Shown here piece after piece: positions 17,581 to 26,406 of a DNA stretch of 64,000 nt. Position numbers and translations under genes: made by a program. The DNA lies in NCBI GenBank assembly GCA_964553685.1, contig CAZKLB010000002.1, positions 62,890-126,889 of the forward strand, in the 5' to 3' direction. The stretch comes from an uncultured Marinoscillum sp. Lineage in GTDB: Bacteria > Bacteroidota > Bacteroidia > Cytophagales > MED-G16. The notes under the pieces were generated by a model. That model was not told the DNA's origin and searched no databases. It worked only from the letters and a program-made list of their open reading frames with translations. How positions within the stretch are numbered: the first letter of the stretch is position 1; each line of letters starts with the position of its first letter.

Positions 17581-18429
17581 ATGAATTATAAAAGCATATT
17601 ATTCTTTTTTTTATTTTTTTCATACCAACAATTAAAATCACAGGAGTTATATATTAATACAGAGCCGGCTAGTCTTATACCAAAGGGGACAAAAGTTGTA
17701 AGACTTCATCATCATACATTTTTTTTGAATGAGACCAACACACCGAGCTCATTTTCAAATGCTAAAGTTTTAATTCCATCAATCTCATATGGGATATCAA
17801 AAAAAATAATGGTTAGTGCTAGTTTTCAATTCTCAAATAATCCGTATGATATACAAAAAAACTTTGCTTTTAATGGATTTAAATTATATTCTAAACAAAG
17901 AATTATATCAACTGATAAAAATAAATACCATACAAGATTATCATCATTTATAAAATATGCTAATCATGGCAAGTGGTATGCTCCAAATTATAAATATCTT
18001 AAAAATAATTATGATCTAGATTTTCAAGATTCTGGGTTAGAAGTCGGATTAATAGCAACTCAGTTGATAAATAAACTTGCTGTCTCAGTAACTTCAGGAT
18101 TTGGTATTATATCAAATAGAACATCAGATGGATCTTATGATGACAAAAACTTTAATTCCTTTCATAACTCGATATCAGCTGGATATTTACTTTTTCCAAG
18201 AAAATATAAGTCATATAAACAGACAAACCTTAATGTTTATTTGGAATATTTAACTAGTACCATTCTTAGCAAGGAACACCCAGCCATTTACAAAAAGTTT
18301 ATGTCAACACTTGCGCCAGGTATTCAATTCATAATAATGTCAAGATCAAGACTTGATTTTGGATATAAGATTAGATCTAAAAACTCACCAAATGAATTTT
18401 TAGTGAAATTAACTTATATACTTTACTGA
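17581..18429 (+). CDS. Putative outer-membrane beta-barrel protein
   Basis: Signal peptide, alternating beta-strand pattern and an aromatic C-terminal residue (..KLTYILY). No family recognised. Confidence 0.4.
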   Translation: MNYKSILFFFLFFSYQQLKSQELYINTEPASLIPKGTKVVRLHHHTFFLNETNTPSSFSNAKVLIPSISYGISKKIMVSASFQFSNNPYDIQKNFAFNGFKLYSKQRIISTDKNKYHTRLSSFIKYANHGKWYAPNYKYLKNNYDLDFQDSGLEVGLIATQLINKLAVSVTSGFGIISNRTSDGSYDDKNFNSFHNSISAGYLLFPRKYKSYKQTNLNVYLEYLTSTILSKEHPAIYKKFMSTLAPGIQFIIMSRSRLDFGYKIRSKNSPNEFLVKLTYILY

Positions 18430-19449
18430 CTAATCCTCAATAAGATACGTCCCTTTATAAACATTAAATCCATCATTAGACCAATATGCTAGTTTGGGTT
18501 CATTTCCCTTCTTTTCTTTTATAGATGCACAACCAACTGAACCATCTTTTCCAAGGGCAACTATTTTATCATTAAAATTTATATTTTTAGTTCCTCCATT
18601 TATATCAATTATTCTTTTACAGAGAGCTTCACATGCCTCTTGTGGTGATTTACCATTTCTCATCTGTTCAACAACGAAAAATGATCCACAAGTTCTAATG
18701 ATTTCCTCACCTCTTCCTGTTGCTCCAGCAGCACCTACCTCATTATCAACATACAAACCGGCACCGATTATAGGGGAATCTCCAACTCTTCCTGGAATTT
18801 TATAAGCAAGCCCACTCGTAGTAGTTATACCCGCAACGTCGTTTTTTGAGTCTATGGCAAGGACATTTATTGTACCTGTTGTTCTTTCCAAATCATAATT
18901 TCCATCAGAGGGTGGAAACCAATCATCTCTATCGGAAAGGTTTTCTTTCCATCTTAACCATATTTTTCTTGCTCTATCAGTAAGTAAGTTTTCAATTTTA
19001 AAACCGTGAACTCTAGCAAATTCTTGAGCACCTTTTCCAACGATATGGATATGGTCTGTTCTTTCCATTACAAGTCTAGCAACTGAACAAGGTGTTTTGA
19101 TTCCCTCTAAAGCAGCTACTGAACCACAGTTATGAGTTGGTCCATACATAATGGATGCATCTAGTTGAACAATTCCATGTTCATTTGGTAATCCTCCGTA
19201 ACCAACAGAAGTATCATCTGGGTCTAATTCAGTTACGTTTGCTGACTTTTCTATTGCATCTAATAACGTTCCGCCTCCCGAAAGTATATCCCAACCAGGT
19301 TGAAGAACCTTTTCTCCCCAAATCTCACCTCTACTGCATAAAATGACTGGGCCTTTGCTTTGATTTGCTGTTGCGTTTAAACTATTAATGAGAGGTACTG
19401 TTGCACCAATTGCAGATATATTTTTTATAAATTTTCGTCTTGTTGTCAT
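18430..19449 (-). CDS. Glycosylasparaginase / isoaspartyl peptidase (Ntn hydrolase), Tat-exported
   Basis: Tat signal MTTRRKFIKNISAIGA. Motifs TTTSGLAYKIPGRVGDSPIIGAGLY and GAAGATGRGEE. Confidence 0.8.
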   Translation of the reverse strand: MTTRRKFIKNISAIGATVPLINSLNATANQSKGPVILCSRGEIWGEKVLQPGWDILSGGGTLLDAIEKSANVTELDPDDTSVGYGGLPNEHGIVQLDASIMYGPTHNCGSVAALEGIKTPCSVARLVMERTDHIHIVGKGAQEFARVHGFKIENLLTDRARKIWLRWKENLSDRDDWFPPSDGNYDLERTTGTINVLAIDSKNDVAGITTTSGLAYKIPGRVGDSPIIGAGLYVDNEVGAAGATGRGEEIIRTCGSFFVVEQMRNGKSPQEACEALCKRIIDINGGTKNINFNDKIVALGKDGSVGCASIKEKKGNEPKLAYWSNDGFNVYKGTYLIED

Positions 19450-20120
19450 AATTCTAGGTTCTTAAGTTTATTAACATATTCACTAATATAAATATTCTTA
19501 TTTTTAGATCTATATTGGAGTATCCATCTTGGATGTGGTAAAACAATAACATCTTTAAAAAAGTTATATTCTTTATTTATCATTTCAAAAAAATTAATAT
19601 TTTTTCCTTTTCCAATTACAACACAGGTATCCGAAGTGCCGATGGTTTTTATTTGTGATTTTATCCACAGAACAATTTTATTTTTCCATTTTTTTAATAA
19701 TTCATTATCATCATAATAATTTAAATTTTTACCATCTCTTACAAATCCATATGGGCAAATACTAGTAATAAAAAAGTTTTTATAAAAAGATTTTAGATTT
19801 CCGTATGATAAAATCATTTCATAAATAAATTTAGAGCTCATTTCTCTTTTTTTAGGAAATTCAGTCTCAATATTGCACTCTTTAATTAAGTTGTAAGGAT
19901 CAGTGAATGGGATTCCTGTTAACCCTCCTCCAAATCTTCCAGGATTAATACCAAAAATTAAAATTCTTCTTTTTGAGTCGTTGAAATACTTATTATAAAA
20001 AGAAAATAAAATAGAATTTACCTCTTTACTGTGGTAAGGATCTAAAATCTCAATATTTTGAGGTAGAGAAGCTGGTTCAAGACTATTAAAAAAATTAATA
20101 ATCTTATCGCAAGTTTTCAT
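19446..20120 (-). CDS. Uracil-DNA glycosylase superfamily protein (SMUG-like / DUF4918-type)
   Basis: The motif ILIFGINPGRFGGGLTGIPFTDP resembles SMUG motif 1, and LPHPRW sits near the C-terminus. Overlaps the upstream gene by 4 nt. Confidence 0.6.
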   Translation of the reverse strand: MKTCDKIINFFNSLEPASLPQNIEILDPYHSKEVNSILFSFYNKYFNDSKRRILIFGINPGRFGGGLTGIPFTDPYNLIKECNIETEFPKKREMSSKFIYEMILSYGNLKSFYKNFFITSICPYGFVRDGKNLNYYDDNELLKKWKNKIVLWIKSQIKTIGTSDTCVVIGKGKNINFFEMINKEYNFFKDVIVLPHPRWILQYRSKNKNIYISEYVNKLKNLEL

Positions 20121-20127
20121 TAAAGAA

Positions 20128-20730
20128 TTATTCTAATGTCTTAGAGAATCTTTTTAAATGTTCCTCTGGCATTGTATCAACTTGGAAAGAAATAATAACA
20201 TTCGACCAAATCATAACAACATTTGCAACTTTATTATCATTTGCATCAATCCTATATGTTAATCTTTCAATATTAGTATCCCAGATAAATGGGTCAACAT
20301 CAATAGACTGCGCAAGATCTTTATTGTATGCATCCATATCAATCTTGCCATCTACATAGTAAGCATATGGGTATTTTACGGCTGAATTTAAATCTATTGT
20401 CCACTTTCCATCAGCTCTTGGAGTCATAGCTATTGAATACTTACCAGCTTTAATTTTTTTACCTCCTATCATTACATCGGTTGAAAAAATAATAGTAGTT
20501 GGACTGTTAGCACCTGCTCTCCATATTTCATCGTATGGAACTAAATCTCCAAATATTTTTCTCCCTTTTACTCCTGGAGAGGAATAGTAAATTGATATTT
20601 TAGTCATCCCAACATTTTGAGTAACAGATGCTTGAGGACTTGAAACAGGAGCTAAATACTCTCTTGCTGTTTGGCTATGTACATTAAAAGATAGTACTGA
20701 TATTATAAAAGTTAAGAATAAATTTTTCAT
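20128..20730 (-). CDS. DUF2911 domain protein (secreted)
   Basis: Signal peptide and the pattern SPQASVTQNVG...GDLVPYDEIWRAGANSPTTI typical of DUF2911. Confidence 0.7.
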   Translation of the reverse strand: MKNLFLTFIISVLSFNVHSQTAREYLAPVSSPQASVTQNVGMTKISIYYSSPGVKGRKIFGDLVPYDEIWRAGANSPTTIIFSTDVMIGGKKIKAGKYSIAMTPRADGKWTIDLNSAVKYPYAYYVDGKIDMDAYNKDLAQSIDVDPFIWDTNIERLTYRIDANDNKVANVVMIWSNVIISFQVDTMPEEHLKRFSKTLE

Positions 20731-20787
20731 AGATTTTTTATTTAATGATAATTTTTTTTTGGGGGGATCACAAGGAAAGTCATTAAT

Positions 20788-21309
20788 TTATTGTTTAGAT
20801 AAAGAATAATCTCCTCTTAAAATTTGCCACCATCTCTCAAAACTTGAAGGTCTGTGGAAAGTACCTCTTAGTATATAAGGATCTCTTCTAAATCTTGTCT
20901 CTTCAAATTTTGTTCCTTCTTTCCACCTTAGGTCAGGCCATTCATTACAAACTGCAGATGAATTTGTCCTATTTAAACAATCCTGATATGAACCATCGTT
21001 GGATATAAATTCTACTTCAATAAATTCTACCCATCCGTAAACATCAATTTTACCTGTAATTCTAAAAGTATTGTTGGAATCATCGTATGAAGAAAATCCA
21101 CTAAAAGAACATTCATCTGATGTTTCGATGACGAGTGTTTGTTTATTTTTCTTATTTTTAGCTGAATAAGGTCTATCATAAACTAATTCTCCTTCCCAAA
21201 CTCCAATCATTTCTTGAGAAGCAGTAGCACAGTCAATTTGACCTCCATCTGAGCACCTGTATGTGCTACTTGCCAAAAAAATAAACATATAAATTATGAG
21301 GAGTTTCAT
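20788..21309 (-). CDS. Small secreted Cys-containing protein, paralog A (unknown function)
   Basis: Signal peptide MKLLIIYMFIFLASS. Colinear with the 22216-22734 product, sharing YGWVEF, CN.WP..RW..GTKF.E.RFR.DPYIL and five conserved Cys. Confidence 0.6.
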   Translation of the reverse strand: MKLLIIYMFIFLASSTYRCSDGGQIDCATASQEMIGVWEGELVYDRPYSAKNKKNKQTLVIETSDECSFSGFSSYDDSNNTFRITGKIDVYGWVEFIEVEFISNDGSYQDCLNRTNSSAVCNEWPDLRWKEGTKFEETRFRRDPYILRGTFHRPSSFERWWQILRGDYSLSKQ

Positions 21310-21318
21310 TAATTTTTT

Positions 21319-22212
21319 TTACCAAAGTGGGGTTGGATAAGTTTTATTTTCAACTAGTTTTTTAATTTCCTTTTTTACGAATAGACTATCTTCAGCATAA
21401 GTAACACCAAACCAACTTTCATCAGTATTTTCAACATGGACATAATCACTTGAAATATCATCTAGTACGTCAGGTATTAAAAATTCACTTTTAATGTCAT
21501 CGATATTATTTTTCAAAAAATTATTAAAATCTGACCTAAGTTTAGTGAAAACAGAATTTTGAAATCCAATAAGATTCATTGCAACTTGAGTTCCAATAGA
21601 CATTTCAACATTGTTATTATTATATACTCCTCTTAATTTATTTCCTATTCTCACTATTTCATGAGTTTCTTTAATATCAATTAATTTATTACCATCGATT
21701 TTACAGACTCCTCTAGATACACCTCCAAAATCAGAAAGAGTGTTCTCAATGTCATAACTAACCATCGTCGCCTTAATGTTATTTTCTTCAATATGTTTTA
21801 AAGCTCGACTTATTTTTTTAAAGGCTCCTCTGCCATAAAAATCGTCAGCATTAATTATTGCAAAAGTGTTATTAATATAATTTTCACAACAAAGAACAGC
21901 GTGACCTGTGCCCCAAGGTTTTTCTCTTCTTTTGGGATATTTAAAATTTTCAAGTCCATAACAAGGATCTTGAATTACTACTTGGACAGTAATACCATTA
22001 ATGTTATCAAATAACTTAAGATATTTTTCTTCAAAATACTTTCTCAGTTTTGGAGAGGATAGTATGACAATTTTATTGAAACCCGCCTTAATAGCATCAA
22101 ATATTGAATAATCCAATATTGATTCGTTGTTTGGACCAAAACTATCTACTTGTTTTAAACCACCATAACGACTTCCCATACCACCAGCCATGATAAGTAG
22201 GGAGTAGTTCAT
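21319..22212 (-). CDS. Sugar-phosphate nucleotidyltransferase family protein (cytoplasmic)
   Basis: The N-terminal loop LLIMAGGMGSRYGGLKQ is a variant of the G-x-G-T-R signature of NTP_transferase. No signal peptide. Confidence 0.7.
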   Translation of the reverse strand: MNYSLLIMAGGMGSRYGGLKQVDSFGPNNESILDYSIFDAIKAGFNKIVILSSPKLRKYFEEKYLKLFDNINGITVQVVIQDPCYGLENFKYPKRREKPWGTGHAVLCCENYINNTFAIINADDFYGRGAFKKISRALKHIEENNIKATMVSYDIENTLSDFGGVSRGVCKIDGNKLIDIKETHEIVRIGNKLRGVYNNNNVEMSIGTQVAMNLIGFQNSVFTKLRSDFNNFLKNNIDDIKSEFLIPDVLDDISSDYVHVENTDESWFGVTYAEDSLFVKKEIKKLVENKTYPTPLW

Positions 22213-22215
22213 TTT

Positions 22216-22734
22216 CTAGTCTTTTGTAAGAGTAAATGTGCCTCTGATAGTACTATTCCATCCTCCACCAGCTGTGAAAAATTCACCTTGTAAGATATAA
22301 GGGTCTGTTCTAAATCTTGCCTCATTGAACTTTGTACCAGGTCTCCATCTCACATAAGGCCACCTATTACATGGGTTATTCCAATTGGAACCATTTCCAA
22401 CACATCCAGTATATTCTCCACCATCATATTCATACTCAGTTTCCATAAATTCAACCCACCCATATTTATCTACTGTACCAGAAACTACAAATGTTGTATT
22501 CGCTTCCTTGAAGGTATTAATTCCCTGAAAAAAACAATCATTAGAAGATATTATAGAAAGTGTTACTTCATGTGTTTCGCCATTTGCTGACCAACTTGTA
22601 TAATCGGCTCTACCTTTCCACGTCCCAATCATCTGTTGCGCAGCACTACTGCAATCAATTGTAGCTTCAGGTTCACTACATCTATATGTTGAACTCGCAA
22701 GAATTATAAAAATTAGTGTAGTTAGTAATTTCAT
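22216..22734 (-). CDS. Small secreted Cys-containing protein, paralog B (unknown function)
   Basis: Signal peptide MKLLTTLIFIILASS. Roughly 40% identical by eye to the 20788-21309 product. Confidence 0.6.
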   Translation of the reverse strand: MKLLTTLIFIILASSTYRCSEPEATIDCSSAAQQMIGTWKGRADYTSWSANGETHEVTLSIISSNDCFFQGINTFKEANTTFVVSGTVDKYGWVEFMETEYEYDGGEYTGCVGNGSNWNNPCNRWPYVRWRPGTKFNEARFRTDPYILQGEFFTAGGGWNSTIRGTFTLTKD

Positions 22735-22778
22735 AGCACAAAATTAATAAAGTTTTTATATGAAATCAATAACGAAGT

Positions 22779-22809
22779 TTTAGATAATATGTTTTATTAC
22801 TCAGATTAC
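22779..22809 (+). promoter_or_regulatory. Candidate shared cis-element, copy 1 (TTTAGATAATA at 22779-22789 and TTACTCAGATTAC at 22797-22809), upstream of the SSF symporter
   Basis: Both short motifs recur exactly in the proteorhodopsin promoter region but in swapped order. A near -7 box, TATATTTA, follows at 22814-22821. Confidence 0.3.
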
Positions 22810-22837
22810 TTACTATATTTATAATAATCAATATTTT

Positions 22838-24613
22838 ATGCAAATATCTACATTAGACTGGGTAATTATTTTTTCATTTTTTGCTTTGTTCATTTTAATT
22901 GGTCTTTACTATTCAAAGAGATCTGGACAAAGTTCTAAAGAATTTTTCTTGTCAGGTAGAGATATGCCTTGGTGGCTTCTTGGAATTTCAATGGTAGCTA
23001 CCACATTTTCAGCAGATACTCCAAATCTGGTAACAAATATCGTAAGAGATTCAGGGGTCTCAGGAAACTGGGCCTGGTGGGCATTTCTTATAACTGGAAT
23101 GATGACAGTTTTTTTGTATGCAAAACTATGGAGGAGATCTGATGTATTAACTGATTTAGAATTTTATGAAATTAGGTATAGTGGTCCAGAGTCTACTTTT
23201 TTAAGAGCCTTCAGAGCTATATATTTAGGAGTTTTTTTTAATGTCATGATCATGGCAACGGTTTGCTTGGCAGGTATCAAAATCGGTGGTGTATTATTAG
23301 GACTAACACCATTTCAGTGTGTATTCTATTCTTCCTTAATCACTGTAATTTACAGTTCGCTCGGTGGATTAAGAAGTGTGATTATAACCGACCTAATCCA
23401 GTTTGTGTTAGCAATGGTTGGCTCTATTTGGGCATGTTATTATTTAATAAATCTTGATCAAATAGGAGGTTTAGACGCGCTTATTAACAATCCTTTAATT
23501 ATTGATAAGCTTAATTTTCTACCTGATTTTAATGATTATGATTCATTAGTTACAATACTAATCATTCCAATAGCTGTGCAATGGTGGGCGGTATGGTATC
23601 CAGGAGCTGAACCTGGGGGTGGTGGATATATTGCTCAGAGAATGCTATCAGCAAAAGATGAGAAAAACGCAATATATTCCACTTTACTTTTTAACATAGC
23701 TCACTATGCTGTTAGGCCATGGCCATGGATTTTAATCGCTTTATCTTCAATTATTATATATCCTCAACTTTCTGATATTTCTAATCAATTCCCTAACGTA
23801 GATAAATCTATAATTGGTAACGATATTGCATACCCTGCAATGTTATCACTGCTGCCTGCCGGTTTACTTGGTTTGGTTCTTGCATCATTAGCTGCTGCGT
23901 TTATGAGTACAATATCAAGTCATCTTAACTGGGGTGCTTCATATATTTCAATTGATTTCTATAAAAGGTTTATTAAAAAAAGTGCTTCAGAAAAAGAAAT
24001 TGTATTAATTGGTAGAATTTCAACCGTTTTATTAATGGTAATAGCGGGATTCGTTGCATTGGAATTACAGGATGCTCTGGAGGCATTTAGAATTTTACTT
24101 CAAATAGGAGCTGGTACAGGTTCAATATTTTTATTGAGATGGTTTTGGTGGAGAGTTAATGCATATAGTGAAATTACAGGAATGATTGTTTCATTTGCTT
24201 TAGCAATATATTTTAAATGGTTTCATGAAGGTATTTTTCAGTTTTCATTTAAACCTCATGAAGAATTATTATTAAGTATTGCTATAACAACATCATCATG
24301 GATTTTAATTACACTCTTAACAAAGCCTACAAAGAAAGAAAAATTATTAGAGTTTTATTATAAGATAAAGCCTTATGGAATTGGCTGGAATGGTTTTTTG
24401 AGTATAAATAATTTAGTCAAGTTTAATGGTAAGGAATCTCCAATGAAAGATCTTCTTTTAATGTTTATCTGTATTATTATTGTATACTTTGGCTTATTTG
24501 GTTTTGGGTATATATTGTATGGAAAAATGCTATTTGGCACTATAATGCTAATAATATCTTTTGTTTTATCGATTACTGCAAATAATATTATGTCTGGACA
24601 ATATAAAGACTAA
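22838..24613 (+). CDS. Sodium:solute symporter family (SSF) transporter
   Basis: 591 aa with about 13-14 TM segments. SSF-like segments include GRDMPWWLLGISMVATTFSADTP and GGYIAQRMLSAKDE. Confidence 0.85.
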   Translation: MQISTLDWVIIFSFFALFILIGLYYSKRSGQSSKEFFLSGRDMPWWLLGISMVATTFSADTPNLVTNIVRDSGVSGNWAWWAFLITGMMTVFLYAKLWRRSDVLTDLEFYEIRYSGPESTFLRAFRAIYLGVFFNVMIMATVCLAGIKIGGVLLGLTPFQCVFYSSLITVIYSSLGGLRSVIITDLIQFVLAMVGSIWACYYLINLDQIGGLDALINNPLIIDKLNFLPDFNDYDSLVTILIIPIAVQWWAVWYPGAEPGGGGYIAQRMLSAKDEKNAIYSTLLFNIAHYAVRPWPWILIALSSIIIYPQLSDISNQFPNVDKSIIGNDIAYPAMLSLLPAGLLGLVLASLAAAFMSTISSHLNWGASYISIDFYKRFIKKSASEKEIVLIGRISTVLLMVIAGFVALELQDALEAFRILLQIGAGTGSIFLLRWFWWRVNAYSEITGMIVSFALAIYFKWFHEGIFQFSFKPHEELLLSIAITTSSWILITLLTKPTKKEKLLEFYYKIKPYGIGWNGFLSINNLVKFNGKESPMKDLLLMFICIIIVYFGLFGFGYILYGKMLFGTIMLIISFVLSITANNIMSGQYKD

Positions 24614-24662
24614 TTTTATTCTGAATTTTATTCTGAAAACAAAATAAATTTATAAAAACTTT

Positions 24663-24688
24663 TTACTCAGATTACCGTTTAGATAATA
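24663..24688 (+). promoter_or_regulatory. Candidate shared cis-element, copy 2 (TTACTCAGATTAC at 24663-24675 and TTTAGATAATA at 24678-24688), upstream of proteorhodopsin
   Basis: Exact 13-mer and 11-mer matches to the SSF promoter region. They lie immediately upstream of the -7 box. Confidence 0.3.
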
Positions 24689-24694
24689 AATGCT

Positions 24695-24702
24695 TAAATT
24701 TG
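24695..24702 (+). promoter_or_regulatory. Bacteroidota-type -7 promoter box (TAAATTTG, consensus TAnnTTTG) for proteorhodopsin
   Basis: Exact consensus match about 36 nt upstream of the ATG at 24739, inside a 125-bp intergenic region. Confidence 0.5.
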
Positions 24703-24738
24703 CATTAATTAATAATATTATTAACCAAACGATCAATT

Positions 24739-25470
24739 ATGAATACGTTAAATTTTATATTAGGAGCAAGTTTACAACCAGGTGATTTCACCGGTTTTAC
24801 TTTCTTCATAGGATCTGTTTCTATGTTAGCAGCTACTGTGTTCTTTTTAGTACAGCACGGACAAGTTGACAAGAAATTTAAAGATTCAATGCTTGTTGCA
24901 GCTTTAATTACTGGTATTGCAGCTGTACATTATTACTATATGAGAGATCAGTGGGCAGAAGGTCTTGGTTCACCAACTGAATTAAGATACGTCGACTGGA
25001 TCTTAACTGTACCATTGATGGTAGTTGAGTTTGCTTTACTTACTGGTGTAGGTATGAGAAAACTTTTCTGGGCTTCTGTGGTTATGCTTGTCACTGGATA
25101 TTTCGGTGAATCAGGTGTTACGGGAGTATTAGATGCTCAAACTTGGGGTGCTATCTCAGGTGCTGCATATTTCTACATGGCATACGAAGTAGGATGTTTC
25201 ACTGTATTTACAGGAAGCGGTCCTCAAGGTGATGTAGGTACTGCTTTAGCTAATGCTAAAGGTAAAATACCTGCTGCTGGTAAGATGCTTCAATGGTTTG
25301 TATTAGTTGGATGGGCAATTTATCCTCTTGGATATATGATGGGAACTGACGGATGGTATTCCGGTATGGTTTCTGGAATTCCATTTGACATGGATATTGT
25401 ATACAATATCGGTGATGCTATCAACAAAATTGGATTCGGTATGGCTGTATGGTCTGCTGCTAGAGACTAA
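24739..25470 (+). CDS. Proteorhodopsin, light-driven proton pump (DTE motif, Met at tuning position 105)
   Basis: Helix C RYVDWILTVPLMVVEF gives D97/T101/E108 equivalents with M at 105. AVHYYYM supplies the His75 equivalent. YNIGDAINKIGFG supplies the D227 and Schiff-base K231 equivalents. GWAIYPLGY is also present, and the protein has 7 TM segments. Confidence 0.95.
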   Translation: MNTLNFILGASLQPGDFTGFTFFIGSVSMLAATVFFLVQHGQVDKKFKDSMLVAALITGIAAVHYYYMRDQWAEGLGSPTELRYVDWILTVPLMVVEFALLTGVGMRKLFWASVVMLVTGYFGESGVTGVLDAQTWGAISGAAYFYMAYEVGCFTVFTGSGPQGDVGTALANAKGKIPAAGKMLQWFVLVGWAIYPLGYMMGTDGWYSGMVSGIPFDMDIVYNIGDAINKIGFGMAVWSAARD

Positions 25471-25493
25471 TTTTAATAGCTATTAATATTAAA

Positions 25494-25520
25494 GGTGAGG
25501 TTTTCCTCACCTTTTTTTTT
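25494..25520 (+). terminator. Rho-independent terminator after proteorhodopsin
   Basis: GGTGAGG-TTTT-CCTCACC perfect 7-bp GC-rich stem followed by T9, 24 nt after the stop codon. Confidence 0.8.
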
Positions 25521-25530
25521 ATATTTTCCT

Positions 25531-26406
25531 ATGATTTCTACCAACCAAGGTTTGATAACTTCTAAAATTGTAGGTTTAATATTTTCTTTATCACTTATTT
25601 TCTTTGATATTGGTAACACTTACTCTAGTATCATTTTTGTTTTAATAATGCTTACTATTGGTATACCTCACGGCTCAGTAGATCATATAATTGCCTTTCT
25701 AAATCCAAAATCTAGGAGGTTTAGGAGTAAGCTGAGTTTTTTTACCATCTATATAGCTTTGATAATAATAAATATTATAATATGGATATTTTCACCATTT
25801 ATGGGGTTATTTACATTTTTAATAATATCCTGTTATCATTTTGGTGAGACGCAGGTTATTGGATATAATTCAACGGATAATAAATTATTAAATTTTGTTG
25901 TTGGAGCCAATATTTTATTATCTCTTTTCCTAAATAATATATTTGAGTTACAAGAAATATTAATTGATTTCACATTTTTTAGTAGTCTGAATTTAGATGG
26001 ATATGAAAAGATTTTTTTTCTTTTAGTATCCGTCACAATTCTTATGATATCTGTGGTTCAATTTGACATAAAAAGAAAGGTTCCATTATATGCTGAGATG
26101 AGTATTCTCTACTTAATATTTTATCATACAGATATACTGACATCATTCTCTATTTTTTTTGGATTTTCACATTCTTTACCAATGCTATTGATGGAGTATG
26201 AAGAGATGAAGGAATCTAACTTTTTTAAATTTTATATTAAAACACTACCTTTTACAATTCTTGCTATACTTTTTGGTGGATTTTTATATTATTTTAATGA
26301 CAATTTAGTTACGACTGATAACTTAATATTATTTATTTTCATAATCATTTCTAGTCTAACATTACCTCATGTATTCATCATGAAAGATTTTGTTGAAAAT
26401 AAATAG
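25531..26406 (+). CDS. blh: Brp/Blh-family beta-carotene 15,15'-dioxygenase (retinal synthesis)
   Basis: Polytopic membrane protein with conserved His motifs GIPHGSVDH, CYHFGETQ, FGFSHSLP and LTLPHVF. The ORF-track GTG start at 25495 lies inside the terminator stem, so the ATG at 25531 is preferred. Confidence 0.85.
   Translation: MISTNQGLITSKIVGLIFSLSLIFFDIGNTYSSIIFVLIMLTIGIPHGSVDHIIAFLNPKSRRFRSKLSFFTIYIALIIINIIIWIFSPFMGLFTFLIISCYHFGETQVIGYNSTDNKLLNFVVGANILLSLFLNNIFELQEILIDFTFFSSLNLDGYEKIFFLLVSVTILMISVVQFDIKRKVPLYAEMSILYLIFYHTDILTSFSIFFGFSHSLPMLLMEYEEMKESNFFKFYIKTLPFTILAILFGGFLYYFNDNLVTTDNLILFIFIIISSLTLPHVFIMKDFVENK

Follow-up and report, generated by a model that had tools for sequence, protein, structure and literature searches.

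Does the arrangement of two small, exported-looking proteins around a cytoplasmic enzyme reflect a functional unit, or the gene order that a streamlined genome has inherited? The question is raised by three minus-strand genes of an uncultured Marinoscillum sp., which we call B (the upstream paralog), NT (a nucleotidyltransferase) and A (the downstream paralog). A sequence-only reading of the window, the whole 64,000-nt stretch of DNA analyzed here, had suggested that they might form a functional exported-cytoplasmic-exported sandwich. Here we consider the paralogs, their predicted fold and N-termini, the enzyme between them, and the fate of this gene order in relatives.

Layout of the locus

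The open reading frames agree with the layout described from sequence, with three closely spaced genes, NT beginning 3 nt after B and A 9 nt after NT (Table 1). None of the three carries a name in any source annotation. The accompanying claim of strong streamlining is also sustained, with a GC content of about 30% and about 98% of the window lying inside ORF calls, the latter figure being derived from greedy calls over the window. Across the whole window, same-strand gaps have a median of 5 nt, and 21 of 31 do not exceed 10 nt, so the spacing of the trio is not special.

Downstream of A lie genes with Pfam matches to DUF2911, the uracil-DNA glycosylase (UDG) family and the Asparaginase_2 family, which are clearly unrelated in function to the trio. 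The genes for proteorhodopsin and blh are found at a distance of 2 kb. Together, the trio and its three downstream neighbors probably form one compact co-transcribed unit. Its boundaries are putative, since a promoter and terminator scan found no terminator-like site in 18300-23000 and returned 31 promoter-like sites where 23.5 +/- 4.6 were expected, which is not a clear enrichment from a scanner that has no Bacteroidota promoter model.

Table 1. Coordinates of the trio, its downstream neighbors and the predicted signal sequences within the window.
Feature	Position	Strand	Remarks
Asparaginase_2-family gene	18430-19449	minus	Pfam match; 4-nt overlap (-4) with the UDG gene
UDG-family (uracil-DNA glycosylase) gene	19446-20120	minus	Pfam match; 7 nt gap after DUF2911
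DUF2911 gene	20128-20730	minus	Pfam match; 57 nt gap after A
Gene A (downstream paralog)	20788-21309	minus	173 aa ORF
A signal sequence, residues 1-18 (MKLLIIYMFIFLASSTYR)	21256-21309	minus	directly before the Cys19 codon, 21253-21255
Gene NT (middle gene, nucleotidyltransferase)	21319-22212	minus	297 aa ORF
Gene B (upstream paralog)	22216-22734	minus	172 aa ORF
B signal sequence, residues 1-18 (MKLLTTLIFIILASSTYR)	22681-22734	minus	directly before the Cys19 codon, 22678-22680

A and B are old paralogs of a new family

The outer genes had been described as colinear paralogs, and their full-length colinear alignment (45% identity, 66% positives, E = 3e-54) places the likeness far beyond chance. 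All of the motifs quoted for them are present (MKLL...LASSTYRCS, IDC..A.Q.MIG.W.G, YGWVEF.E.E and CN.WP..RW..GTKF.E.RFR.DPYIL.G.F), and 28 of 28 aligned family members retain all five of the cysteines noted as conserved (C19, C28, C67, C111 and C122, numbered as in B). At the DNA level A and B are 64% identical and their longest common exact word is 12 nt; the duplication is therefore old. A neighbor-joining tree separates the upstream (B) from the downstream (A) copies, each set forming a clade of its own, and dN/dS values of 0.02-0.13 for B and 0.07-0.39 for A indicate purifying selection on both, in line with the proposal that both copies of an old duplication have been maintained. B is the more conserved copy, with a mean ortholog identity of 74% as opposed to 59% for A, and it is present in every syntenic locus; A evolves faster, and several lineages have lost it.

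The small proteins had been assigned to no recognized family, and the searches concur: Pfam, NCBIfam and PADLOC contain no match, and a PDB sequence-profile search with the family gave 0 matches at E <= 10. Nothing but noise came up in Pfam at E <= 1, and a match to UPAR_LY6_2 at E = 0.32 was discarded as noise-level. A family HMM scores B at 257 bits and A at 242 bits. The family is very small, with 26 clusters in a set of 5.8 billion proteins and 44 representatives in one of 1.84 billion, and the 1.84-billion-protein scan yielded no relatives outside the marine clade. In named genomes all 18 of 18 loci belong to low-GC marine Cytophagales MAGs labeled Marinoscillum or Flammeovirgaceae, and the number of family copies per locus varies from 1 to at least 5. 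One further hit of the HMM scan, the 1487-aa repetitive protein P0065, was rejected as a compositional false positive. The A/B family is a new, lineage-restricted sequence family whose predicted fold is a known one.

A predicted calycin-like barrel

The AlphaFold2 model of B (pLDDT 84.4, pTM 0.76) presents a helix at residues 28-34 followed by eight strands (37-45, 54-65, 68-75, 81-88, 93-103, 134-140, 146-154 and 164-171), and together with Foldseek it predicts a closed, eight-stranded, antiparallel up-and-down beta-barrel. Foldseek ranks de novo barrels, streptavidin/avidin, nitrobindin, GID4 and a Bacteroides lipocalin highest, at a probability of about 1.0 (0.9-1.0 across the matches to streptavidin, nitrobindin, lipocalins and designed barrels) and with TM-scores of 0.44-0.50 when normalized to the query and 0.55-0.73 when normalized to the target. 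These fold matches are generic (E of at least 1e-3), so no function can be transferred from them. A search of the viral BFVD models likewise recovered nothing beyond generic barrels of giant-virus or uncultured-phage origin (E of at least 2e-3) and was uninformative. The earlier guess of a lipocalin-like fold thus finds support in the structural predictions, the profile searches having returned no family.

Five further residues are invariant in the family (G37, D89, G92, W93 and K171 in B numbering), and W39 is present in at least 90% of sequences. According to Flower et al., the calycin signature reportedly consists of a helix and a strand-1 G-x-W that packs against a basic residue of the last strand. 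The family carries the counterparts of these elements at the sequence level, with helix 28-34, G37, W39, and K171 closing the last strand. We detected no sequence homology to any described calycin family in Pfam, NCBIfam or the PDB profile search (E <= 10). A and B are most likely extracytoplasmic eight-stranded barrel proteins with a calycin-like fold, as judged from the model.

The N-terminus and the question of lipidation

An N-terminal signal sequence had been proposed for both small proteins, and the sequence features expected of one are in place. No substitution occurs at K2, R18 or C19 in 28 of 28 family sequences, and behind K2 lies a hydrophobic core of 11 residues, LLTTLIFIILA; the model of B places a helix at residues 4-14 and disorder at 17-21. 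The N-terminus therefore combines the basic n-region, hydrophobic h-region and invariant cysteine of a lipoprotein. What it lacks is the lipobox [LVI][ASTVI][GAS]-C, in place of which the family has the motif [ST]-[YW]-R-C. Among other lipobox-like N-termini in the window and the fetched loci, 36 of 38 have S, G or A at position -1 and 0 of 38 have R. The invariant arginine at this position is in conflict with the canonical lipobox and so with a straightforward lipoprotein reading of A and B; the two proteins may be lipid-anchored through an unusual T-Y-R-C motif.

The number of cysteines is odd in every subfamily, being 5, or 7 in the type found in tandem arrays. This odd count and the modeled disorder at residues 17-21 are both indirect hints of a possible acylation of Cys19.

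NT is predicted to be a housekeeping enzyme

The middle gene had been taken for a signal-less NTP_transferase, and we agree with this assignment. NT has no signal peptide, it matches Pfam PF00483 (NTP_transferase) over residues 6-182 with 32.7 bits against a cut-off of 21.2, and the N-terminal G-x-G-[TS]-R...K loop of that family is carried by residues 9-21 (AGGMGSRYGGLKQ) as G-x-G-S-R...K. NT also aligns end to end with PDB 3pnn_A (E = 9.4e-62 over residues 3-296). Its best scores against the GalU, RmlA and GlmU equivalogs of NCBIfam are 16-26 bits, against cut-offs of 292-658, and it belongs to none of them. A literature search found no paper describing 3PNN and nothing useful on a Bacteroidetes-type GalU. 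NT is predicted to be a housekeeping-type cytoplasmic sugar-1-phosphate nucleotidyltransferase of the 3PNN type.

Gene order in relatives points to inheritance as the probable cause

The expectation that the triplet would be conserved held in part. B-NT-A recurs in many relatives, within a syntenic block (PR, SSF, B, NT, A, DUF2911, UDG, asparaginase) whose downstream genes are kept in all long loci, but A is absent in about one third of the syntenic loci and other arrangements exist. The loci without A (L013, L014, L015, L017, L020, L021, L042, L044 and L046, and also L056, L083, L092 and L099) are scattered over the B tree. A B-type gene lies directly upstream of NT in every NT-containing locus (>60 loci, down to 50% NT identity and with the L039 lineage included), and the adjacency must therefore be at least as old as the clade; B and NT may have a functional tie. 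NT homologs among the matches listed (at least 63% identity) all come from the same clade and share the same synteny.

In one divergent sister lineage (L037 and L039-L041) both small genes stand upstream of NT and a GalE gene follows it (S-S-NT-GalE; TIGR01179 at 414.9 bits in the L039 lineage). The position of GalE next to NT is a hint that NT makes a UDP-hexose. The small genes of the L039 lineage were duplicated independently.

Family members are also found where there is no transferase. At L097 and L098 four of them stand in tandem behind an OmpA-family gene; within 10 kb of these arrays there is no NT, and the only likeness found between the array loci and the window lies in the family genes. 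Solitary family genes occur at L025-L036, solitary copies lie between MarC and Pirin genes, and further members reside on phage-like contigs (L080, L072 and L077/78). Such independent occurrence is what the sequence-only reading had itself named as counting against its proposal, and the claim that the sandwich is a functional unit was not borne out.

It is nevertheless worth setting out what B-NT-A would do as a functional unit. The activated sugar or other phosphate-ester product of NT, or a glycoconjugate made from it, would be bound, carried or displayed beyond the cytoplasm by the two barrels, or would serve to glycosylate them. The unbroken adjacency of B and NT, kept with 3-8 nt gaps or overlaps, speaks for such a unit; so does the L039 lineage, which despite its divergence keeps the small genes before NT and GalE after it in a plausible envelope-glycan context, and the predicted barrel is a fold typical of small-ligand binders. 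Against this, A is dispensable, the small family thrives in settings that have no NT (tandem arrays, solitary loci and phage-like contigs), and the NT family, with at least 8000 homologous clusters, is >100-fold larger than the small family and occurs in taxa that lack it, among them presumably Porphyromonas gingivalis with 3PNN. A module would be conserved beyond synteny and have no independent parts, whereas here the SSF, DUF2911, UDG and asparaginase genes, clearly unrelated in function, are just as syntenic. Tight spacing is genome-wide, and the ORFs and Pfam matches of the cluster include no transporter, flippase or glycosyltransferase for moving or attaching a product. We regard this explanation as unlikely, and the functional reading of the sandwich as weakly supported. 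On balance we consider it probable that A and B arose by an old duplication within a new calycin-like barrel family, and that their position on either side of NT is inherited order and not a dedicated module.

Copies on phage-like contigs

A distinct clade of family members, 69-90% identical among themselves and 52-56% identical to B, lies beside a T4 gp44-type clamp loader on L080, a contig of 1.5 kb. The clamp loader matches phrog_168 at 6.7e-46, and its identity to the phage clamp loaders that match best, out of 2658 matching records, is 45-48%. Two scans of IMG/VR and a tblastn search of 50,697 GenBank phage records recovered no family member, so the link to phages rests on metagenome contigs. 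The 358-aa neighbor on L078 has no phage match.

A different explanation of the locus starts from these copies. The family would consist of variable surface proteins engaged in phage-host interaction as receptor, shield or decoy, T4-like phages would have captured a copy, and NT would be irrelevant. The captured copy would remodel the host surface or exclude superinfection, and the arrays and the loss of A would reflect an arms race. The clamp loader next to a distinct family clade speaks for such a history, as do close relatives of these copies beside GroEL-like, transaldolase and sulfotransferase genes of the kind that large marine phages typically carry, a highly variable copy number, surface-export-like motifs in several subfamilies, and a synonymous divergence at B that is unusually deep relative to the flanking genes in several close genome pairs. 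It is hard to reconcile with amino-acid evolution that is strongly purifying and not diversifying (dN/dS 0.02-0.39), or with the empty searches of IMG/VR and the phage records. A clear phage hallmark gene is confined to L080, the structural phage genes tested are all missing from L077/78, and surface exposure is itself a prediction. We consider this explanation very unlikely.

The boldest combination of these elements would make the family a new surface-anchored calycin-like class, attached via an Arg-Cys "lipobox" or another modification of the N-terminal cysteine and common to abundant, streamlined marine Cytophagales and the T4-like phages that infect them; on the phage side it would serve to remodel or to mask the surface of the host, and NT and GalE would load the barrel with an envelope compound derived from a nucleotide-sugar. 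This is speculation to which we give little credence.

Finally, the notion that the small ORFs are not real genes, or owe their likeness to a recent duplication or an assembly artefact, has nothing in its favor but small size and absent annotation and is already refuted by the exact B protein recurring on 133 contigs from independent samples (Tara and other surveys), by orthologs that range from 50 to 99% identity with the invariant residues kept, by dN/dS well under 1, by the DNA divergence of A and B, and by the confident model of B.

A model for A and B

For the favored reading, that of barrel paralogs in an inherited gene order, we infer a model that covers export, type of cleavage, disulfides, anchoring and ligand binding of A and B, as well as the lack of functional coupling to NT. 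A Sec-type signal sequence would direct A and B out of the cytoplasm and end in the invariant [S/T]-[Y/W]-R-C, after which a short, acidic, disordered stretch would act as a tether. Four of the invariant cysteines would brace the barrel, most likely paired into two disulfides in the periplasm, leaving the odd first cysteine, C19, as the most likely attachment point, that is, the N-terminally acylated cysteine of a lipoprotein with a non-canonical lipobox. In several subfamilies an acidic, surface-export-like signal would follow it. Alternatively, signal peptidase I might cut between A-S-S and T, and the product would be a soluble periplasmic protein. By either route, mature A and B would work in the cell envelope as small-ligand-binding or surface proteins, and their flanking of NT would stem from an inherited order of genes together with a single local duplication, in a genome that is almost without intergenic DNA.

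The host clade is an abundant one in surface ocean waters, and with a genome as small as this, a gene retained in duplicate is likely to be of importance. The family is new and joins a confidently predicted ligand-binder fold to an unusual, invariant T-Y/W-R-C processing motif, a variable copy number and phage-borne relatives. Should Cys19 indeed be lipidated, this motif would extend what is accepted as a lipobox in Bacteroidota; if it is not, the motif marks another conserved N-terminal feature. The locus also holds a caution for genome scans, as a spacing of 3-10 nt and a conserved order are the default in streamlined genomes and by themselves provide no evidence of a module.

Comparison with known systems

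NT keeps the G-x-G-S-R...K loop of sugar-1-phosphate nucleotidyltransferases such as GalU, RmlA and YngB, yet falls far under the NCBIfam cut-offs of the characterized GalU, RmlA and GlmU. Its full-length likeness is to the PDB 3PNN "conserved domain protein", presumably a Porphyromonas gingivalis entry and itself uncharacterized.

Phages encode envelope lipoproteins for superinfection exclusion, T5 Llp being one example. The L080 copy resembles Llp in being small, signal-bearing and Cys-anchored-looking, and it lies beside T4-like replication genes; unlike a true counterpart, it has no sequence relationship or demonstrated structural relationship to Llp.

The predicted up-and-down eight-stranded barrel after a short helix is shared with avidin/streptavidin, nitrobindin/THAP4, lipocalin-like bacterial proteins (BACOVA_00364, PDB 4GZV, is one) and GID4. 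At the sequence level, as in calycins, strand 1 of the A/B family carries G-x-W and an invariant lysine ends the last strand, and A and B are, like the calycin-type comparators, small and putatively extracytoplasmic. They differ from calycins in a 30-residue, cysteine-containing insertion between strands 5 and 6 (residues 104-133), in the five invariant cysteines and in the invariant T-Y/W-R-C motif at the N-terminus. No residues for binding biotin or heme can be inferred in A or B.

A parallel to the N-terminus is the lipoprotein export signal (LES) of Bacteroidota surface lipoproteins, experimentally defined as C-X-K-(D/E)2-X, or in a looser form as a polar or basic residue with two or more acidic residues behind it, directly following the +1 cysteine (Lauber et al. 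2016, PMC5080379). The A/B family shares with LES lipoproteins (PMC5080379) a short signal sequence, an invariant cysteine at about position 19 and acidic residues directly after it. From this cysteine onward the array type (CGKEEE) and the L039 type (CKKDE) match the LES exactly, B (CSEPE, with CDEPED or CKEPED in its orthologs) matches only approximately, and A (CSDGG) matches poorly. What sets the family apart from LES lipoproteins is the invariant arginine, preceded by tyrosine or tryptophan, that stands before the cysteine where a small residue is expected.

Organization of the triplet

The sandwich formed by two small Cys-containing genes, B upstream and A downstream of a nucleotidyltransferase gene (NT), is probably not a functional unit, as judged from five lines of evidence: gene spacing, synteny, the dispensability of A, alternative gene orders and the independence of the small genes from NT. 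The ORFs and an alignment of A with B bear out the coordinates, the spacers of 3 nt and 9 nt, the colinear paralogy and all the motifs described in the sequence-only reading; its proposal of an exported-cytoplasmic-exported unit is not supported.

Features of the window and of homologous loci (L-numbers) that carry small-family genes
Feature	Position	Strand	Remarks
B	22216-22734	minus	ORF, 172 aa
NT	21319-22212	minus	ORF, 297 aa
A	20788-21309	minus	ORF, 173 aa
T-Y-R-C codons	22678-22689 (B), 21253-21264 (A)	minus	end of putative signal sequence
DUF2911	20128-20730	minus	E = 1.2e-39; another secreted protein, function not known
Divergent neighbors of B	22838-26406	plus	symporter, proteorhodopsin-like gene, 303-aa gene
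Sodium:solute symporter (SSF), 591 aa	within 22838-26406	plus	divergently adjoins B
Proteorhodopsin-like gene	24739-25470	plus	Bac_rhodopsin in orthologous loci
303-aa gene	within 22838-26406	plus	ortholog matches beta-carotene dioxygenase family (BCD)
Tandem arrays	L097, L098; also L084, L086, L087, L089, L090, L091, L095		four to five paralogs
Copies on phage-like contigs	L080:596-1108; L072:1475-1978; L077:3729-4232; L078:5001-5504		

The window is about 98% coding by greedy ORF calls, with a GC content of about 26-36%, several gene overlaps of 1-20 nt and a median same-strand gap of 5 nt (10 nt or less in 21 of 31), so the gaps within the triplet are ordinary. No terminator-like site was found between A and the same-strand DUF2911, UDG-family and asparaginase-family genes. 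All long loci share the order proteorhodopsin, SSF (opposite strand), B, NT, A where present, DUF2911, UDG and asparaginase, the unrelated neighbors being conserved to the same degree as the triplet itself.

A is dispensable. It is missing from 6 of 17 representative genomes whose locus spans the NT-DUF2911 junction, where 44-96 nt remain, and from metagenome loci L013, L014, L015, L017, L020, L021, L042, L044, L046, L056, L083, L092 and L099. These loci are scattered over the B-gene tree (A is absent from L015 yet present in the closely related L061 and L063), which implies repeated loss. Other gene orders also occur. At L039:4785-7801, as in L037, L040 and L041, two tandem small genes precede NT, followed by GalE; the NT of this lineage is about 50% identical to that of the window, and, farther downstream, an inserted dienelactone-hydrolase gene separates DUF2911 from the UDG-family gene. 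In L097/L098 (8056-10579), four consecutive paralogs of ~190-220 aa, with 7 Cys and a perfect C-G-K-E-E-E resembling the Bacteroidota lipoprotein export signal (LES), lie directly 3' of a 469-aa OmpA-family gene in a chromosomal context (thrS-infC-rpmI-rplT ... SSF ... OmpA), and no NT occurs within 10 kb. Short contigs (L084-L091) carry up to five copies, and solitary genes of the type of library protein P0033 (L025-L036) are flanked by MarC and Pirin genes or lie near sulfatase and MORN genes. DUF2911 is constantly downstream of the cluster, and a second DUF2911 gene lies ~7 kb from the array in L097/L098.

NT lacks a signal sequence, bears a AGGMGSRYGGLKQ loop and scores 32.7 bits against Pfam NTP_transferase (threshold 21.2), in agreement with its initial description as a signal-less enzyme of that fold. 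It falls far under all NCBIfam equivalog cut-offs, GalU, RmlA and GlmU included. A full-length relative (E = 9.4e-62) is PDB 3PNN, an uncharacterised structural-genomics protein that a literature search found described in no paper and that we take to be from Porphyromonas, and NT homologs form at least 8000 protein clusters. Together, these results identify NT, at the level of sequence, as a widespread sugar-phosphate nucleotidyltransferase of no assigned specificity. One sister lineage has a bona fide GalE directly 3' of NT (TIGR01179, 414.9 bits against a cut-off of 262.3), which is a hint, not proof, that a UDP-hexose is the NT product.

Conservation of the triplet in relatives is partial: a B-type gene lies immediately upstream of NT in every one of the more than 60 NT-containing loci sampled, whereas A is missing from some. 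Although this adjacency favors a module coupled to NT, such a module seems unlikely given the repeated loss of A, the alternative orders, and a spacing and synteny equally seen for unrelated neighbors. Moreover, small-family genes also occur apart from the transferase, in OmpA-linked arrays, as solitary genes and on phage-like contigs. NT has relatives in Porphyromonas (3PNN); the profile-HMM scan found no small-family member outside the marine clade.

Relatives on phage-like contigs

Three metagenome contig groups bear a distinct small-family clade, 69-90% identical internally and 52-56% identical to B, with N-termini MKQFVLFLFIFLASSTWRCDEPED in L077/L078 and ...LVASSTYRCEEPEN in L080. The case that L080 is a phage contig is strong by gene content: next after the small gene comes a T4 gp44-type clamp loader (1136-1543; phrog_168 at 6.7e-46), for which tblastn gave matches to 2658 phage records, the best of them at 45-48% identity. 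The assignment is tentative for L072, where the small gene follows a GroEL-like gene (phrog_5725), and for L077/L078, where it sits amid a transaldolase and two sulfotransferase-like genes. This separate clade would suit a surface family that interacts with phage, but searches of IMG/VR and GenBank phages found no small-family copy, and we consider this role rather improbable.

Age and maintenance of the duplication

The A and B proteins are 45% identical over a full-length alignment (E = 3e-54), and their DNA is 64% identical with no common word longer than 12 nt, indicating an old duplication whose copies have not been homogenised by gene conversion. Purifying selection acts on both, with dN/dS in close genome pairs of 0.02-0.13 for B and 0.07-0.39 for A, and the original view of an old duplication with both copies maintained is thus sustained. 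A is the faster-evolving copy (its orthologs average 59% identity, against 74% for B, in 276 genome pairs), and an identical B protein is present on 133 independent contigs. That the small ORFs are unreal, or the duplication recent or an assembly artefact, can be dismissed with near certainty.

The B-type gene of L094 (730-1247) and the A-type gene of L085 (1326-1834) are each split into two overlapping ORFs, and the alignment to NT of L016 (6521-7412) falls into two parts, its tail matching poorly; frameshifts, pseudogenes or errors of sequencing may explain these cases. Synonymous divergence is mosaic across the syntenic block in pairs L010/L012, L019/L024, L019/L066, L069/L076 and L008/L010, with pS of 0.27-0.6 at B (often SSF too) versus 0.02-0.3 at the adjacent NT, A, DUF2911 and UDG, and pN at B of merely 0.01-0.03. 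This pattern points to B having recombined or retained old alleles, and could also stem from assembly or MAG mosaicism.

Family and predicted fold

A and B represent a new sequence family inside a well-known fold class. As first surmised, no recognised family matches them: no hit came from Pfam, NCBIfam or PADLOC, nor from a PDB profile search at E <= 10. The family comprises 26 clusters in 5.8 billion proteins; a profile HMM run against 1.84 billion representatives found 44 sequences, which include many fragments and a single false positive, with none beyond the marine clade. In species-representative genomes, 18 of 18 loci lie in low-GC marine Cytophagales MAGs or SAGs labeled Marinoscillum, Flammeovirgaceae or Marinoscillaceae. 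Three representative-library proteins (P0037, P0038 and P0042) join half of the small family to unrelated sequence, which in P0038 includes an N-terminal reverse-transcriptase-like Y-I-D-D motif; chimeric assembly or ORF miscalling is the probable cause.

An AlphaFold2 model built with a 28-sequence alignment was confident (pLDDT 84.4, pTM 0.76). In it a signal helix leads into disorder at positions 17-21 and then a short helix (28-34); eight beta strands follow, and 30 inserted residues (104-133) separate strands 5 and 6. Its Foldseek neighbors are eight-stranded up-and-down barrels (designed barrels, streptavidin/avidin, nitrobindin, GID4 and a Bacteroides lipocalin; probability about 1.0, target-normalised TM 0.55-0.73), in line with the lipocalin-like fold raised at the outset; at E = 1e-3 or worse, neither a specific homolog nor a function can be transferred, although the fold class of the model is clear. 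Residues K2, R18, C19, C28, G37, C67, F69, D89, G92, W93, F96, E98, C111, C122, R129, G150, G165 and K171 (B numbering) are invariant family-wide.

Discussion

On balance, we favor a model in which A and B are exported to the cell envelope as calycin-like barrels, stabilised by disulfides and probably tethered via Cys19, where they would bind small ligands or serve as surface components. In this model, their placement around NT would be a product of ancestry, of a single local duplication and of the compaction of the genome. It is conceivable, from the neighboring proteorhodopsin and BCD genes, that the barrels bind a retinoid or carotenoid. The bacterium is abundant in the ocean, and the family is marked by an N-terminal motif that is invariant yet unusual, by a copy number that varies and by its phage-borne relatives.

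The N-terminus (MK, 11 hydrophobic residues, then A-S-S-T-Y-R-C) reads as a signal sequence, ending in an invariant [S/T]-[Y/W]-R-C motif. A lipoprotein is suggested by the invariant Cys19, the Cys total, which is odd throughout the subfamilies (7 in the longer array type, 5 in the others), the unstructured residues 17-21 of the model and the acidic residues right after Cys19. The array-type C-G-K-E-E-E and the L039-type C-K-K-D-E fit the experimentally defined Bacteroidota LES, C-X-K-(D/E)2-X (PMC5080379). Conversely, canonical lipoproteins have a small residue at -1, where Arg is invariant in the small family and follows Tyr or Trp: S, G or A occupies -1 in 11 of 11 clear lipoproteins of the window and in 36 of 38 lipobox-like N-termini from the window and fetched loci, with Arg in 0 of 38. 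Cleavage by signal peptidase I between A-S-S and T appears equally plausible, and we lean only slightly towards anchoring at Cys19. The calycin signature combines G-x-W at strand 1 with a basic residue on the last strand, and the G37-x-W39 and K171 of the small family, at the corresponding strands of the model, resemble it.
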